In this document: positions 2,413-38,784 of the stretch, piece by piece
Numbering within the stretch: the first letter of the stretch is position 1
How the letters are laid out: each line of letters opens with the position of its first letter
IMG/VR virus record: IMGVR_UViG_3300017909_003066
Coordinates: 45,043 to 109,042 of that record
Direction: 5' to 3' (one strand)
DNA: 64,000 nucleotides
Source: a virus
Taxonomy: Duplodnaviria > Caudoviricetes
Position numbers and translations under genes: made by a program
The notes under the pieces: model-generated
Databases searched by the model: none
What the model saw: the letters and a program-made list of their open reading frames with translations, nothing else
Told to the model about the DNA's origin: nothing

Positions 2413-2496
2413 TGGTGCGACCACCCGGACTCGAACCGGGACGCCATAAGCGACAGATTTTAAGTCTGTTGTGTCTACCTATTCCACCATGGTCGC
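2413..2496 (-). tRNA. tRNA-Leu(UAA)
   Basis: Cloverleaf GCGACCA...TGGTCGC-A-CCA, anticodon arm ACAGA-CT-TAA-AA-TCTGT, long variable arm. Confidence 0.95.
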
Positions 2497-2544: not shown

Positions 2545-2638
2545 TGGTAGGGGAGGCGGGATTCGAACCCACATCGCTCTCTAATCTGGAGACTTTGCCG
2601 AGTATAAGCCGGGTGTTTTACCATTAAACTACTCCCCC
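2545..2638 (-). tRNA. tRNA with UAU anticodon (Ile-type) and a long (~24 nt) variable arm
   Basis: GGGGGAG...CTCCCCT-A-CCA acceptor, GTGGG-TTCGAAT-CCCGC T arm, CCCGG-CT-TAT-AC-TCGGC anticodon arm. Confidence 0.8.
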
Positions 2639-2768
2639 CTTATCTACTCTATCTCAGATATGTTTTCTATGTCTTTAAATTTTACAACAAAGGATTTGTT
2701 GCTCATTTCAATTATCCTCTTGTGGATGTCTAACTATGTGTTTAATATACTATAGGAAGGATAGTATG

Positions 2769-3470
2769 TCAAGCACTTTGTAGGTAAGAATATACCTTTT
2801 TGAGTAATTTTTTTATCACAGGATGTTTAGTATCAAAACCCCACATAGCCATATAACCTAAAAGATTAGGAGACAACAAATATCCTAGTTCGTCTTTAAG
2901 TCCTGCTGATGAACTAACATTCCTTAACAAGTCTATCGCTTTATCTTTTCCAACGGCTCTGTCTAATTCAGTAGAAATATTTTTTGCAAATGCTTCAATC
3001 TCATCATCGTTACCTAAGTATTTTTTTGCTCTTATCATATCAGGTTCTTTTGCTTTTGTCTTATAATCACGTTGACGAACAAAGTTACGTGAACGATACT
3101 GTTGCATGTGAATAATTTCATGTTCTAGTGCATCTACTATTCTGTTCTTAATGTTTTCAACACCTTCGGGAGAAAATACAATAGTTTTATCTTTTTTGCT
3201 AAAGATTAATTCCAAGTAAAAAGGTTCTAATCCTTCTTCGTCATCTACAGGATCATATGCCGCATTCATGTTCATATCTCCTGGTTCTACATTTTTACTT
3301 GTTTGTATACCTACTTCTGCTACACCAAATTGTGCTAAAGTATTTTGTAACATTTTAGCAATATCTTTTCTAGTTTTAGGATCACCACTATTAATAAAGT
3401 TAATAAAAGGGTCTAGTGCCGCTTCTATTTCCTTTCTATTAGCAGGTTGTGTGATTTCCTCTAAACGCAT
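2769..3470 (-). CDS. Zincin-like metallopeptidase-fold protein, probably late/virion
   Basis: HEIIH motif plus downstream EIEAFA; TAAATA at 3476-3481. Confidence 0.6.
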   Translation of the reverse strand: MRLEEITQPANRKEIEAALDPFINFINSGDPKTRKDIAKMLQNTLAQFGVAEVGIQTSKNVEPGDMNMNAAYDPVDDEEGLEPFYLELIFSKKDKTIVFSPEGVENIKNRIVDALEHEIIHMQQYRSRNFVRQRDYKTKAKEPDMIRAKKYLGNDDEIEAFAKNISTELDRAVGKDKAIDLLRNVSSSAGLKDELGYLLSPNLLGYMAMWGFDTKHPVIKKLLKKVYSYLQSA

Positions 3471-8955: not shown

Positions 8956-9999
8956 TTAGTTTTGGGTAACTGTCACGCCACAACCGTTAGCATTTGTACA
9001 TATACCTGTAATACTATATGTTTTATTTGAAGTTGCTGTTTGATCTAAGTCTAATGTATAACCACCGCCTGAATTTGTTAGATTAATATTTGCTGTATGT
9101 GAACCATAGCGTTGAAATACGTCAACTGTATGTCCGTCATCTAAAACTATGTCCGCAAACTGTTCATCACTATTTCCACGTTGTAATAATGTAACATTAT
9201 TATCGTCACCGTTTATTTCAATATATCCTTCATGATCGCCGCCGCCACGCTGTGTATGTTTTACAGTATTGCTATCACCTGTAACGTAATTTGCAATATG
9301 TTGTCCACCATTACCATTATCATCTGTTTGATAACTTTCCAAATTGTTGTTACTACCTGCTACAATCCAATACACATCATTGTCGCCAGTCTCATCTGTA
9401 TCCACTGTTCCATTTTCGTGTTTGCCTTGCCATGCTTTAATATTATTTGAACTACCGTTAACCGTAACTGTATTGATGTTATTGCTTTGATCGTGAATTT
9501 GTATGTCTATACTATTATTACTACCATCTATAACTTCTGTGTAAAGTGTGTTGCTATCGCCGTTATCAATCGTTACGCTAATTTGATTATTGATATCGTT
9601 ACCATTGCCTATTTCAGTATGAGTGACATTACTATCTCCATCGATACTAACAGACATGTTGTTATTGTTTCCGTGATTGTCCATGGCACTTACATTTGAA
9701 TTACCGTCCTGTGTAAGACTCATTTGATGATTACCTCCATGTGTCCAAAATCCTGCACGGTTGTTATTGCCTTGTTGTGTGATTGAAAGGGTTTTGTTAT
9801 TACCACCTATGTATGCATCACCACTTGTAGTGTTAAGACTACGGATAGAATTATCTTGACCGTCTTGTGTAATATCTAAATCTATTGAATCACCAACCTG
9901 AGTCATGTATATGTCATTTGCTAATCCTTTCATAGGAAAAACTAACAGCAAAAATAAAATACTACTGTACTTGAATAATGTCAATTTCATTCTGTCCAT
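8956..9999 (-). CDS. Curlin-like repeat protein (long, CsgA/CsgB-like)
   Basis: Signal peptide; NDIYMTQVGD; many ~22-24 aa x-Q-x-G-x-x-N repeats. Confidence 0.75.
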   Translation of the reverse strand: MDRMKLTLFKYSSILFLLLVFPMKGLANDIYMTQVGDSIDLDITQDGQDNSIRSLNTTSGDAYIGGNNKTLSITQQGNNNRAGFWTHGGNHQMSLTQDGNSNVSAMDNHGNNNNMSVSIDGDSNVTHTEIGNGNDINNQISVTIDNGDSNTLYTEVIDGSNNSIDIQIHDQSNNINTVTVNGSSNNIKAWQGKHENGTVDTDETGDNDVYWIVAGSNNNLESYQTDDNGNGGQHIANYVTGDSNTVKHTQRGGGDHEGYIEINGDDNNVTLLQRGNSDEQFADIVLDDGHTVDVFQRYGSHTANINLTNSGGGYTLDLDQTATSNKTYSITGICTNANGCGVTVTQN

Positions 10000-11065
10000 C
10001 TCCTAATTGATAGTCTCTATATTCAAAGTCGCCTTGTTGCATATTGATATTATATCCATTTGCTTGATTTAAACGTAATTCAAAAAAGTTACCCATACCA
10101 TCATCTCTACGTATTAACCAATCCGGTTTTTGATCATAAAGTTCAATACCGGTTTCAGGATCTTTTCCTAATTGTATTCCTTGATTTCTTTCATCAAGTG
10201 CACCTCGCATAAGTCTAGCAAGTGCTTCATTAATTAAATCTAAAACGTTCCGCAAAAAGTCCTGTCCTAAAAAATCAATATCTAGATCGGTCATCCATAA
10301 ACCCTCAGTCTGCACTGCTAGATAATCTTTATTCAGTTCATCAAATTCTAAAAAATCAAATCCCAAAAAGTCTGAAAGTTTTTTAATACGGTTTCTTTCT
10401 AATTCTTCTTCTATTTCTACTGGTTTTCTAATAACCAATAAGTTGTTAATCAAACTTTCGTCTATATCTAGTGTAATTGGATTCAATGGTTTAGATTTAG
10501 CAGTTTCTACAACCGTGGCTTGGAAAGCCTGATTTAGAATTACAGTGCCTACATCACTGGAAACTTCTATTTCTCCTACTACACAAATTTTACTTCCCAT
10601 CACTATGGTACAACTTGGTAGTAGGATAATAGTACTATTACCCGTTTCGTCAACAGTCATTGTAAAGTCTGTTCCTCTTACACCAATAACTGCTGTGGGT
10701 GTTGTTATTTTGACATTTTGTTTTGAGTTTTTTGCAATCTGACCACTTGCATATCGTACTGTTCCAAAAGACGCCTTGAGAGCGAGAGAACCAGTGGACG
10801 TATTAGGATCATATACAAACTCATCTATTACAAGTTTACTGTTTTCAGTTACATCGACTCTAGTGTCATCGACAAACTCAATTGATGTTCTTCCAACTTT
10901 TGTTTTTACAACATCATAACTTTCAATGCCAAAACCTTCATTGGAACGATATCCGTCACCATCCTTTCGGATAATATCTGCCTCACCGATCTGCTTGGTT
11001 ACTTCACCAATATTAGCATACGCGGTCGAGGTTAGAATGACCAATAACAGAACCAATATACGCAT
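9962..11065 (-). CDS. FecR-domain periplasmic protein
   Basis: Signal peptide; D.VKT..G...IEFVDDTRV.VTENSKL.ID; TPTAVIGVRGTDF. Confidence 0.85.
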   Translation of the reverse strand: MRILVLLLVILTSTAYANIGEVTKQIGEADIIRKDGDGYRSNEGFGIESYDVVKTKVGRTSIEFVDDTRVDVTENSKLVIDEFVYDPNTSTGSLALKASFGTVRYASGQIAKNSKQNVKITTPTAVIGVRGTDFTMTVDETGNSTIILLPSCTIVMGSKICVVGEIEVSSDVGTVILNQAFQATVVETAKSKPLNPITLDIDESLINNLLVIRKPVEIEEELERNRIKKLSDFLGFDFLEFDELNKDYLAVQTEGLWMTDLDIDFLGQDFLRNVLDLINEALARLMRGALDERNQGIQLGKDPETGIELYDQKPDWLIRRDDGMGNFFELRLNQANGYNINMQQGDFEYRDYQLGDGQNEIDIIQVQ

Positions 11066-11781
11066 TAGTCATCCTGCGTAATATCTATTTCAGCGTCATC
11101 TCCACTTGTAGTCAACTGTAACTTGTTATCATACAAACCACTTTGTGTGATATTGATTACTCCACCGTCACCTGTGTGACTGTGTGTTAGTGAATGTCCA
11201 TTTACATCACCGTTGTCATTTATATCATAAACGGCAGTGTTTCCAGTTAATCCACTTGAGTTTGAAATATCAATGTCAGCATCAGCATTTTGACCGTCTA
11301 CAGTTAGTGTTACTGTTTCAGCGGCCGCTGATGTAATATCCATTGTACCTACAAAGTTCACTGCATCTGCATTTTCACCTATGCTAACAACAACTGTTGC
11401 TGAACTTCCTGTTACATCAATACTCATACTAACAGTTTCACAATTTCCTGATCCTGCTGTACCTGTACTATCACAAAGTAATGCTACGTTGTTTGAGTTA
11501 CCTGTTAAATCAATGTTACCTGTATAAGTGTCACCATTGATTATTGCAGAAACAACGTTAGAGTTACCTACTTGGTCTATATTAAAGGTCATAGTATCAC
11601 CTGTCAATTGTATTGCTGTGCTACTAGTACCTGCTACGTTGTTTTGTCCGTCTTGCGTTATATCTAAGTCTAAGTCATCGCCTGATTGCGTAATGTAAAT
11701 ATCATTCGCCAATACAGGGGTAACAAGGCTTAACGAAGATAGTAAGAACAATCCGTACATGAATGTTTTAAATTTATTCAT
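11065..11781 (-). CDS. Curlin-like repeat protein (short)
   Basis: Signal peptide; NDIYITQSGDDLDLDITQDGQNN; Q-x-G-x-x-N repeats; one Cys pair. Confidence 0.75.
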   Translation of the reverse strand: MNKFKTFMYGLFLLSSLSLVTPVLANDIYITQSGDDLDLDITQDGQNNVAGTSSTAIQLTGDTMTFNIDQVGNSNVVSAIINGDTYTGNIDLTGNSNNVALLCDSTGTAGSGNCETVSMSIDVTGSSATVVVSIGENADAVNFVGTMDITSAAAETVTLTVDGQNADADIDISNSSGLTGNTAVYDINDNGDVNGHSLTHSHTGDGGVINITQSGLYDNKLQLTTSGDDAEIDITQDD

Positions 11782-11792
11782 TCTCGCTCCTT

Positions 11793-12623
11793 TTATTTGT
11801 TAGGACCTTTATGAAGTGTGATTTTATCATCTTTAAACTTCCAAAGGCCTTTTGTTTCCCCTTCTTTAACTAATTGCAATATAGCGGCCTCAATTGCGGC
11901 CCTAACTGCGTAATTGGTAGGTTCATTTACTGCGGCACCAGTCTCTATTTCTAAAGCCTTAGTACCTAAGTCCAAAAACCTGAACACATCTGCTCCAGAC
12001 TTGTAACTTGCTATCGTTTTTTCAGTTGCCACGCTCAACAAAACTTCTCCTGTTTGTACACTAACGATTCGCATTGCCACTGTTACCTGATCGGTTCTGT
12101 AGGTTTTATTTGCTCCAATACCAAAATATCTTGCTCCTACTCCCCCGCTAGTTGTATTAGAATCGTAGCCAACTACTCCACCCTCTAATAACAATCCAGC
12201 AAATAACATTGGTTTTAATTTTACTGGTTCTTTTTCATATACTTCCCTTGTCGACCTAATTAATTGCCTTTCCTTAACTAAATTATCTAGACCCACTCTT
12301 TCTACAACAGTGAACCATGTGCCTTTTCCTGCCTTTTGAAGTGCATTAATAACCCACACTTCAGAACCTTGAGTAACTGCACTGCTTAATTGAGAAAACT
12401 TATCATTTGGTTTTCTCTGGCCCGTTTTATCAAGAAAACTATAAACAGCAATAGTAATCTTTGGACCGTCTAGCACGGGTAATGATTCTAACTTATTCAC
12501 TAATGGAGTTGTTGCTTTAACTGGCTCGCTCCATTCTGTGTTAGACATCGTTGCCGCACAACCATTTAACAGTAATGCAAAAACAATCCCGGTGAATACT
12601 TTAACACAATTAGTTTTTCTCAT
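11793..12623 (-). CDS. csgG: Curli secretion channel lipoprotein CsgG
   Basis: Lipobox LLNGC; VYSFLDKTGQRKP, SSAVTQG, WFTVVERVGLDNLVKERQLIR, EGGVVGYDSN. Confidence 0.93.
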   Translation of the reverse strand: MRKTNCVKVFTGIVFALLLNGCAATMSNTEWSEPVKATTPLVNKLESLPVLDGPKITIAVYSFLDKTGQRKPNDKFSQLSSAVTQGSEVWVINALQKAGKGTWFTVVERVGLDNLVKERQLIRSTREVYEKEPVKLKPMLFAGLLLEGGVVGYDSNTTSGGVGARYFGIGANKTYRTDQVTVAMRIVSVQTGEVLLSVATEKTIASYKSGADVFRFLDLGTKALEIETGAAVNEPTNYAVRAAIEAAILQLVKEGETKGLWKFKDDKITLHKGPNK

Positions 12624-12626
12624 AAG

Positions 12627-13085
12627 TTAGAACCCAAATCCGCTCAATGGAACAATAATTTCTGTAAATGTTCCATCTTCTTCAGTAATTTGTACGGTTA
12701 TTGTATCAGTGGTGACATCTTTGATCCAATAAATGGTAGCACCTTCTATTTCTGCGGTACCTGTCAAAGCGCCAGTATCACTGAACATATTATCAACCAT
12801 TTGTTTACTGAGTTGAGCATAGATTCTAGATTCTACATTAGATAAAAACTTCGCTAAGGTTGTGCCTTCAGCCTCACGTTGTTTTCGCCTTGCTTCTGAT
12901 TCTGCTTTTTCCTCAGCGTCCTTTTTCCTAGTGAACTGAAGTTGCTCGATGCTCAGTACGTGGTTGCTATACCCCTGTCCACTAAAACTAGGATTTTTGA
13001 ATTCAAAAACTTCGTCTGCAAGAGTAACAGTAGACAAGAAGGCAGTCAAGACAAATGTCAGTAAAATACTATTAAATTTACACAA
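12627..13085 (-). CDS. csgF: Curli assembly protein CsgF
   Basis: Signal peptide; FEFKNPSFSG N-terminal motif; directly upstream of csgG. Confidence 0.8.
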   Translation of the reverse strand: MCKFNSILLTFVLTAFLSTVTLADEVFEFKNPSFSGQGYSNHVLSIEQLQFTRKKDAEEKAESEARRKQREAEGTTLAKFLSNVESRIYAQLSKQMVDNMFSDTGALTGTAEIEGATIYWIKDVTTDTITVQITEEDGTFTEIIVPLSGFGF

Positions 13086-26430: not shown

Positions 26431-26697
26431 TTAGTATTTGTTTTCTTGTTCTTTCATTTCACGTTGTTGTCTACGAATTGCCGCTTTTTTAGCCTTACGT
26501 TTCTTATCGCTAGGTTTTTCATAGTACTGACGATCTCTAAATTCTTGAACAATACCTGCCTCGTTAACTTTACGTTTGAACTTTCTTAAAGCCTTCATAA
26601 AGTCTTGTGGAGAGTTTCCTCTCACTACGACAGCACATCCTGCCTCATTAGGATCTCTTACTTGCGCCATTGTTCTTACCTTAACGTTTTTTGCCAT
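26431..26697 (-). CDS. rpsU: Ribosomal protein bS21
   Basis: ALRKFKRKV...GI..E.R.RQYYEKPS.KKR. Confidence 0.9.
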   Translation of the reverse strand: MAKNVKVRTMAQVRDPNEAGCAVVVRGNSPQDFMKALRKFKRKVNEAGIVQEFRDRQYYEKPSDKKRKAKKAAIRRQQREMKEQENKY

Positions 26698-38168: not shown

Positions 38169-38270
38169 GACTCCTTTTGTATTGTATATTCCTTTATCCT
38201 GACTATGTCAGTAGAAGAAGGTCTCCTTGTGTATAATTGGTTCTTTTTGTTATTATTATTACTTGTTATA

Positions 38271-38439
38271 AAAAGTGCAACTTTTCTGTTGCCAGGTAAG
38301 TTGCCAACCCCGTTAGCCTAAACTAGGCCGCAAGTGCTAGATTTTCATCTGCATTTGTAGTTTTCTTCGCGGTAACGGCGCTTAGATCCCGGTAACTCCA
38401 CTCTCCTACTAATCTATCAGTCGATCCTGCTTCAGGCCC
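38271..38439 (-). ncRNA. ssrA: tmRNA coding piece (two-piece, alphaproteobacterial type); tag (A)ADENLALAA
   Basis: 5' GGGCCTG acceptor strand, GGATCGAC, tag ORF 38323-38352, ACCTGGCAACAGAA motif; 3' end approximate. Confidence 0.88.
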
Positions 38440-38440
38440 A

Positions 38441-38629
38441 TCATAAAGACATTGATCCAACAGGCTTACAAATATATTCTACTGTGTCCCAATCACCATC
38501 TGATGGTATTGTTTCATACACTTTTAACATATCTGTACATTCTACTTTGGATTCAAACCATTGTACGTCTTGTTCAAGGCAGGTCGAGCCTAAACAAACT
38601 GTAAGTAAAATGTGCCAAATAACTTCCAT
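38441..38629 (-). CDS. 62 aa Cys-containing protein inside the tmRNA intervening segment
   Basis: AAGGA RBS right after the tmRNA CCA; stop codon ends 1 nt before G1; 4 Cys. Confidence 0.7.
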   Translation of the reverse strand: MEVIWHILLTVCLGSTCLEQDVQWFESKVECTDMLKVYETIPSDGDWDTVEYICKPVGSMSL

Positions 38630-38642
38630 TTCAATGTCCTTA

Positions 38643-38707
38643 TGGTGGACCTGCCCGGTACTGCCCCGGGGTCCTGTCTAGTGTTTGAATTGCTTCAACG
38701 TTACAAC
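38643..38707 (-). ncRNA. ssrA: tmRNA acceptor piece
   Basis: T arm CCCGG-GGCAGTA-CCGGG, then CAGGTCC-A-CCA pairing with GGGCCTG (G3.U70); 5' end approximate. Confidence 0.85.
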
Positions 38708-38709
38708 TA

Positions 38710-38740
38710 TATTTATATACTCACTTTTTGCTTTTGTCAA
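38710..38740 (-). promoter_or_regulatory. Composite sigma70/late promoter for tmRNA
   Basis: TTGACA-N17-TATAAA, with a full TATAAATA. Confidence 0.65.
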
Positions 38741-38784
38741 GAGAAAAATGCTAACTAATGTCCAAACATTTAACCAGGAGTTTT

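Follow-up and report, generated by a model that had tools for sequence, protein, structure and literature searches.

A family of phage tRNAs with anticodon UAU displays GAU on a fifth, anticodon-sized arm that may serve isoleucine charging

The window analysed here, a stretch of 64,000 nucleotides of phage DNA, carries a tRNA gene that combines the anticodon UAU with an additional hairpin at the variable-arm site. This hairpin has the dimensions of the anticodon arm itself (a non-pairing base, 4 bp and a 7-nt loop), and the central positions of its loop show GAU, which is the anticodon of the major tRNA-Ile. The gene belongs to a five-armed tRNA(UAU) family found almost exclusively in phages. 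That an arm of anticodon size should carry an invariant GAU and be tied to a UAU anticodon would be explained most economically if the arm fed IleRS, and we therefore favour, with a probability of about 0.4, the reading that the tRNA would be an Ile-charged AUA decoder whose extra arm may give the host IleRS the GAU determinants absent from the UAU anticodon. Worded more boldly, and so somewhat more tentatively, the two jobs of an anticodon may have been split between a UAU arm for the ribosome and a GAU arm for IleRS, which might yield a lysidine-independent AUA decoder chargeable whatever the host, possibly through swapping of the arms.

The segment 2545-2638 of the window is a genuine tRNA gene. 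ARAGORN called it as tRNA-Ile(tat) of 94 nt on the minus strand, one of seven RNA genes in the window, and Rfam RF00005 scored it at 58.0 bits against a gathering score of 29. From the 5′-end, a 7-bp acceptor stem is followed by U8 and A9, a 4-bp D stem, A26, the anticodon arm, a 24-nt variable region with the hairpin, a 5-bp T stem, A73 and the encoded CCA; in the Rfam alignment, the variable region contains a 21-nt insertion and the 27-43 pair is flagged as non-canonical. The features of the locus are as follows.

2545..2638, minus strand: whole tRNA gene, 94 nt, with encoded CCA at 2545-2547 and discriminator A73 at 2548 (ARAGORN, Rfam, sequence)
2615..2629, minus strand: D arm, 4-bp stem GUUU/AAAC and 7-nt loop AAUGGUA, class-I type
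2597..2613, minus strand: decoding (anticodon) arm, C27.C43 mismatch, 4 bp and loop CUUAUAC, with anticodon UAU at 2604-2606
2577..2593, minus strand: extra arm, G.G mismatch at the base, 4 bp UCUC/GAGA and 7-nt loop CAGAUUA, with GAU at 2584-2586
2573..2576, minus strand: CGAU, the 4 nt separating extra arm and T stem, of which the last pairs with position 15 (Levitt pair)
2556..2572, minus strand: T arm, 5-bp stem and loop UUCGAAU
2413..2496, minus strand: tRNA-Leu(UAA), an ordinary class II tRNA on the same strand, 48 nt downstream of tRNA-Ile
2744..2772, minus strand: promoter-like, sigma-70-like site TTGACA-17-TATATT, 11/12 consensus, ~105 nt upstream of the tRNA-Ile 5′-end

The initial annotation had described a 94-nt gene with encoded CCA and anticodon TAT, a C-C mismatch at the top of the anticodon stem and a variable region of ~24 nt with a TCTC/GAGA hairpin. 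All of these elements were confirmed at the coordinates given, the mismatch being C27.C43, and the hairpin recurs in relatives with compensatory changes; the invariant GAU in its loop had gone unremarked. The TTGACA-17-TATATT site is a possible promoter of the tRNA-Ile/tRNA-Leu pair, in a scan that scores consensus match only and returned 4 sites against 3.4 expected in shuffles. Folding the window tRNA as a single sequence gave no cloverleaf at minimum free energy (z = 0.34, with 119/200 shuffles folding as well), so that the five-arm structure rests on covariation, not thermodynamics.

Relatives were sought by BLAST and by pattern scans. BLAST of the window tRNA against 50,697 phage records matched 322 of them, nearly all at the generic 3′-end alone; broader matches were obtained only for the Lactobacillus Herelleviridae phages LpeD, Lpa804, 3-521 and ENFP1, and those in LpeD and Lpa804 extend through the variable region. 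The Lactobacillus phage genes are tRNA(UAU) genes of 91-93 nt with the same layout as the window tRNA. That of phage 3-521 is annotated as tRNA-Ile, and the five-arm tRNAs of LpeD (L001, 1495-1586) and Lpa804 (L002, 1478-1568) are unannotated in their records, an example of how annotation misses or mislabels genes of this kind. ARAGORN found 9 and 6 tRNAs at these two loci, for which the GenBank stretches shown hold no tRNA features. The LpeD cluster also holds, at 2773-2844 of L001, an ARAGORN 'tRNA-???' with the four-base anticodon tttg, possibly a tRNA with an 8-nt loop or a miscall.

Three scans of IMG/VR enlarged the family. An 18-mer pattern of the anticodon arm matched 89 stretches, which together with the window and three isolate loci made 93 candidates; ARAGORN called 89 of these as tRNA-Ile(tat), 88 being of 91-96 nt and one of 75 nt, and among the four uncalled three are non-tRNA and one (L044) is member-like. 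L044 has a changed T loop, and L185 has the family arms with poor pairing in its acceptor stem; either could be a copy in decay. The second scan, with the extra-arm sequence alone, matched at least 119 stretches, and among the matches listed 116 were called as tRNA, all of them (116/116) with anticodon UAU. The third, a gapped pattern that left the extra arm and the D arm unconstrained, gave at least 119 stretches and at least 83 unique matches, about five of those listed being non-tRNA. With membership decided by a cloverleaf filter and a context defined as the tRNA plus 30 nt, the scans together yielded at least 306 loci, at least 128 distinct contexts and at least 107 unique sequences.

The same 18-mer was scanned over one prokaryote genome per species (185,579 species, 596 Gb). 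Only 6 of the 71 stretches matched were tRNAs, all six of the family type and all on MAG contigs; for an 18-mer that is two-fold degenerate at two positions, about 71 matches would be expected by chance in a search space of this size, and the remaining matches look like chance 18-mers. Family tRNAs on MAG contigs binned as bacteria or archaea are L138/L489, L117, L120, L131, L135 and L141. On the contig inspected (L138/L489, G001 contig C57, 335 kb), the tRNA ends a six-tRNA cluster among phage-like genes for DNA ligase, tail fibre and QueD, surroundings which suggest a prophage or a mis-binned phage.

The record from which the window comes is a 109-kb linear fragment of 35% G+C. A block at 8956-12851 (minus strand) has 75% DNA identity to curli-like and FecR-domain genes of the Methylophilales phage Melnitz, and the tRNA-Leu(UAA) of the window shares 87% identity with that of Pelagibacter phage Mosig; the block match places the phage in the Melnitz/Mosig group, and its relatives are phages of the pelagimyophage type. 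Ribonucleotide reductase, tail fibre, endolysin, ribosomal protein S21 and Hsp20 are among the PHROGs families matched. Among sequencing runs searched for the phage, no RNA run containing it was found. The tRNAs of the record are Gly-UCC, Leu-UAA, Ile-UAU, Arg-UCU, Trp-CCA, Arg-GCG and Thr-UGU, those besides the tRNA-Ile being mostly readers of A-ending codons. Two further translation-related elements lie beside these seven tRNAs: a permuted two-piece tmRNA gene at 38232-38744 (minus strand; Rfam alpha_tmRNA 97 bits, ARAGORN tag peptide ADENLALAA), and an ORF at 26434-26697 (minus strand) matching 'ribosomal protein S21' (phrog_21469, E 1.5e-17), the third such element. A two-piece tmRNA is a known feature of Melnitz-like marine phages, and the text available on Melnitz lists four tRNAs for that phage and does not mention a tRNA-Ile (PMC9004378). 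No match to TilS (PF01171) or to a class I synthetase (PF00133) was found in the record, which is weak evidence because the record is a fragment, and no tRNA-related PHROG was found near the tRNA-Ile gene among 89 ORFs scanned.

Two alignments were used to examine the fold. A1 comprised 93 sequences, with L080 (the 75-nt form) and L185 (poor acceptor pairing) left out. A2 comprised 100 unique sequences drawn, among the matches listed, solely from searches without extra-arm constraint, and omits loci that failed the cloverleaf filter, including about five non-tRNA matches (L289/L368, L348, L357, L383). In A2, 92.3% of cells were in standard pairs, compared with 71.8% in column shuffles, and 0/500 shuffles reached the observed value; the covariation score was 0.585, against at most 0.102 when the partners were slid by 1-3 columns. 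Changes on both sides occurred in 22/27 pairs, with compensatory changes in all five helices, and RNAalifold on A1 returned the same five-arm cloverleaf. As the sequences are related by descent, counts over the family are not independent events.

The A2 data give a 7-bp acceptor stem (99.7% of cells paired), a 5-bp T stem (99.6%) and a 4-bp D stem (99.3%) with a 7-nt D loop. The 15-48 pair was intact in 100% (A-U 74, G-C 26), and such unbroken switching is what is expected of an L-shaped tRNA. In the decoding arm, position 27 fails to pair with 43 in 100/100 (C.C 91, C.U 9), 28-42 is C-G in 100/100, and the three other stem pairs show compensatory changes. In the extra arm, 23, 2, 30 and 8 sequences were changed on both sides of the four successive pairs. 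These results support a cloverleaf of five arms, in which the acceptor/T branch is 7/5 and the D arm is of class-I type, a combination that places the family in neither class II nor the allo-tRNAs. The arm had at first been described as class II-sized: its length of 24 nt in the window tRNA (18-27 nt for the variable region across the family) agrees with that, and the class label does not hold, the body being class-I-like and the arm loop having 7 nt with the invariant GAU. Two other arrangements were tried and rejected, namely pairing of GAU with the T loop, where the T-loop positions vary, and joining of the two hairpins as one long stem, for which there is no complementarity.

The same alignment bears on whether the extra 20-24 nt might be an intron or a degenerate insertion, making the gene a spliced gene or a pseudogene. 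Beyond the unusual length nothing speaks for this, and it is scarcely credible, since covariation is seen in the hairpin and its loop stays conserved while the stem takes 19 forms, the insert lies outside the anticodon loop and lacks a bulge-helix-bulge motif, and Rfam finds a tRNA alone with no intron match. In bacteria, tRNA introns are group I ribozymes that span hundreds of nt and lie within the anticodon loop. Excision of the extra segment as an intron, which the initial annotation had named among the findings that would overturn its view, is thus rejected on the features of the insert.

Charging with an amino acid other than Ile, by a LeuRS, SerRS or TyrRS that recognises long variable arms and so recodes AUA, had been offered from the start as one of three options, and finds little in the family to sustain it. 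A73 would also fit Leu and Tyr. Against it, the D arm is of class-I type (4 bp, 7-nt loop), the 2-71 pair is unconserved (G-C 58, C-G 41), the 11-24 pair is U-A and not C-G, position 35 is A, and the acceptor/T branch is 7/5, not 8/4; the identity-element lists for Ser, Leu and Tyr used in this comparison are partly general knowledge. ATA moreover makes up 696/1967 Ile codons of the record (35%), or 25 per 1000 codons, so that recoding would rewrite the entire phage proteome. Precedents for long-arm UAU tRNAs charged with, or predicted for, Leu or Ser have been described in the sources available in part (PMC3333845, PMC4300185, PMC5389517), and we consider this explanation very improbable for the phage family.

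The extra arm was then compared position by position with an anticodon arm. Its basal nucleotides almost never pair in A2 (G.G 80, G.A 14, A.G 3), it is followed by exactly 4 nt and preceded by a linker of about 0 to 5 nt, and 19 different stems carry its loop, which has 7 nt in 97/100 sequences. The composition of the 97 seven-nt loops is as follows.

Extra loop position 1: pyrimidine in 96/97
Extra loop position 2: A 90, U 4, G 2, C 1
Extra loop position 3: G 97
Extra loop position 4: A 97
Extra loop position 5: U 95
Extra loop position 6: U 88, G 5, A 4
Extra loop position 7: A 91, G 6

The loop G and A are invariant columns in both A1 and A2. Counting the 8- and 9-nt loops, GAU is found in 98/100 sequences, the other two (L003 from phage 3-521, and L327) having GAC. 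The pair equivalent to 29-41 is C-G in 97/100 extra arms, compared with 78/100 for the true 29-41 pair. Having mostly A at position 2 and U at position 6, most extra loops lack the t6A37 determinant and are not faithful anticodon loops. Three lineages with unrelated stems (L316, L361, L026) have U at position 2 and A at positions 6 and 7, and their loops are complete GAU anticodon-type loops.

The body and the decoding loop point to a translating tRNA-Ile. The decoding loop has U33, UAU and A37 in 100/100 sequences of A2. The set of Ile identity elements described for bacteria, in the part of the source available, comprises A73, C4-G69, U12-A23, C29-G41, G or modified C34, A35, U36, t6A37 and A38 (PMC9976931). 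Within the family, A73 is present in 100/100, C4-G69 in 84/100 (the window copy has G4-C69 in its place), U12-A23 in 90/100 and C29-G41 in 78/100, and A35, U36 and A37 in 100/100. What the decoding loop does not provide is G34 or lysidine-34 together with A38, position 34 being U in 100/100 and A38 occurring in 14/100. The extra arm has G at the 34-equivalent position in 97/97 and A at the 38-equivalent position in 91/97; it thus supplies the G34 and A38 equivalents that are scarce in the decoding arm, plus a second C-G at the 29-41-equivalent pair. On these features the gene is very likely to encode a working AUA-reading tRNA, and the tRNA probably accepts Ile.

AUA is the one sense codon that in most bacteria depends on an essential anticodon modification, lysidine, since with a plain UAU anticodon charging by IleRS is poor and AUG can be misread. 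According to the available part of the work on this point, the E. coli IleRS charges a UAU tRNA inefficiently, a defect that one Trp-to-Arg change fixes, such a tRNA misreads AUG on E. coli ribosomes, and the L. plantarum IleRS has an Arg that may already accept UAU (PMC3575796). Poor charging and AUG misreading together mean that a UAU decoder in a TilS-using host faces a charging problem. As IleRS reads G34/L34, A35, U36, A38 and C29-G41 and charges UAU poorly, we propose that the second arm presents these elements. In the proposed mechanism, a class-I-type tRNA-Ile body would carry two like hairpins and lysidine (TilS) would not be needed for AUA: the 5′ hairpin with UAU would do the decoding, and the 3′ hairpin at the variable-arm site would show G-A-U above a C-G pair and usually before a 38-equivalent A. 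By presenting IleRS determinants, the second arm might allow charging in hosts whose enzyme is unadapted to UAU, whether it acts from a place next to the decoding arm or exchanges places with it below the D stem. The data show the gene, its fold, the family and its restriction to phages, the invariant GAU and the tie to UAU; that the tRNA is charged with Ile, decodes AUA and has its extra arm recognised by IleRS is what we infer. A TilS-independent AUA decoder for an AT-rich phage, another of the three options first raised, is the one favoured by the canonical decoding loop, the Ile determinants and the ATA usage.

Several observations weigh on IleRS recognition of the arm. Class I synthetases leave the variable region of a tRNA solvent-facing, so that recognition would need a flexible or swapped extra arm. 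LpeD and Lpa804 keep GAU although the L. plantarum IleRS has the Arg, which argues against the IleRS reading; the loss of GAU in phage 3-521 could fit relaxed selection and is a single case. Reportedly, studies by Tomikawa in 2018 and Uesugi in 2022 dealt with the tRNA-Ile(UAU) of L. plantarum and L. casei, and these may bear on IleRS recognition in lactobacilli. A fourth scan of IMG/VR, for the same CACC...GY frame with a short variable loop, found normal-length phage tRNA(UAU) in 87 stretches (L402-L488), 85 of them called as tRNA(tat) with 73-77 nt, the C27.Y43 mismatch in these 87 being imposed by the search pattern. Their decoding arms had been expected to retain the Ile determinants, and A38 was found in 6/50 and C29-G41 in 10/50. 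Normal-length phage tRNA(UAU) thus exist and are also mostly devoid of A38 and C29-G41, which means that the extra arm is not indispensable.

It is possible, if somewhat less probable than the favoured reading, that the tRNA is an Ile-charged AUA decoder whose extra arm has a role other than IleRS recognition. The arm might make a tertiary contact that stabilises a tRNA with a small D loop, offer a handle for a host or phage enzyme modifying U34, keep the ribosome from misreading AUG too often, or protect the tRNA against host defences that cleave tRNAs. Such a role would draw on the same tRNA features and Ile determinants as the favoured reading, and it accommodates the universal C27.C43/U43 mismatch (100/100), the bases at positions 2 and 6 of the extra loop, which are not those of a true anticodon loop, and the persistence of the arm in phages that infect lactobacilli with an IleRS possibly able to accept UAU; a fidelity device in particular would be useful, as the available text reports misreading of AUG by a UAU tRNA on E. 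coli ribosomes (PMC3575796). It leaves unexplained, however, why a central G-A-U stays fixed on an anticodon-length stem while 19 stems and the flanking bases change, and neither the surroundings of the gene nor the rest of the record showed a candidate partner enzyme.

The common design of the two arms also raises the thought of a tRNA in which both decode, alternating under the D stem so that AUA is read through UAU and AUU/AUC through GAU. The second arm is followed by 4 nt, as many as make up a normal class-I variable loop, the inter-arm linker is about 0 to 5 nt, and the GAU loops of L316, L361 and L026, with their U33-, A37- and A38-type positions, would be decoding-competent. U33 and a purine at 37 are, however, near-universal needs for decoding, and about 90/97 extra loops lack the U33 equivalent and 93/97 a purine-37 equivalent of type A. 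Searches of the full-text literature gave no precedent, and we regard two-way decoding as quite improbable.

A displayed GAU loop could, in principle, titrate a factor that reads the GAU anticodon, and phage tRNAs are known counter-defence tools; the RNA might then draw off, as a decoy or sponge, a host nuclease or toxin directed at tRNA-Ile(GAU), or have another non-translational function. Yet a decoy needs no conserved decoding loop, Ile acceptor determinants, encoded CCA or intact tertiary pairs, all of which are kept, and the strict link to UAU (116/116 among the matches listed) points to translation. The third option of the initial annotation, escape from or decoy of an anticodon nuclease, accordingly finds no support, and a role outside translation seems highly improbable.

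In the full-text literature, where subscription journals are thinly covered, no description of a five-arm or GAU-displaying tRNA-Ile(UAU) was found. If the proposal of a GAU arm offered to IleRS is true, it would constitute a new principle of tRNA identity, in which determinants are moved off the decoding loop, and the family would represent a natural portable, host-independent AUA decoder and a scaffold for engineering orthogonal or sense-codon-reassigning tRNAs.

Among known systems, the class II tRNAs (Leu, Ser, Tyr, Sec) resemble the family in having a stem-loop between the anticodon and T arms and in length (91-96 nt in the family). A class II core has a 3-bp D stem, an enlarged D loop and a short arm loop of 3-5 nt. 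The phage tRNAs share the long variable arm (> about 10 nt) and lack this core and a Leu/Ser/Tyr anticodon; unlike class II tRNAs, they have a 4-bp D stem, a 7-nt D loop, a 7-nt GAU arm loop, 4 nt after the arm and a variable linker before it, and neither their anticodon nor their identity elements are those of Leu, Ser or Tyr. The normal-length phage tRNA(UAU) share with the family the CACC...GY frame of the anticodon arm, whereas they have no extra arm and larger, ordinary D loops. The allo-tRNAs(UAU) of Mukai et al. likewise carry a long variable arm, with UAU predominant and some members in phages, but in the part of that work available they are described with an 8/4 or 9/3 acceptor/T branch and Ser-type features, in contrast to the 7/5 branch here (PMC5389517). 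Nematode nev-tRNA-Ile(UAU) also combines a V-arm with the anticodon UAU, on a eukaryotic tRNA-Leu-type body that is charged with leucine and, in the accounts available, displays no GAU (PMC3333845, PMC4300185). The TilS-independent bacterial tRNA-Ile2(UAU), as in Mycoplasma mobile, in the available text has UAU with A37, reads AUA without lysidine and has A73; that tRNA is of normal length and it is the cell's IleRS that has changed (Arg for Trp), whereas the phage family has added a GAU arm and travels among hosts (PMC3575796).
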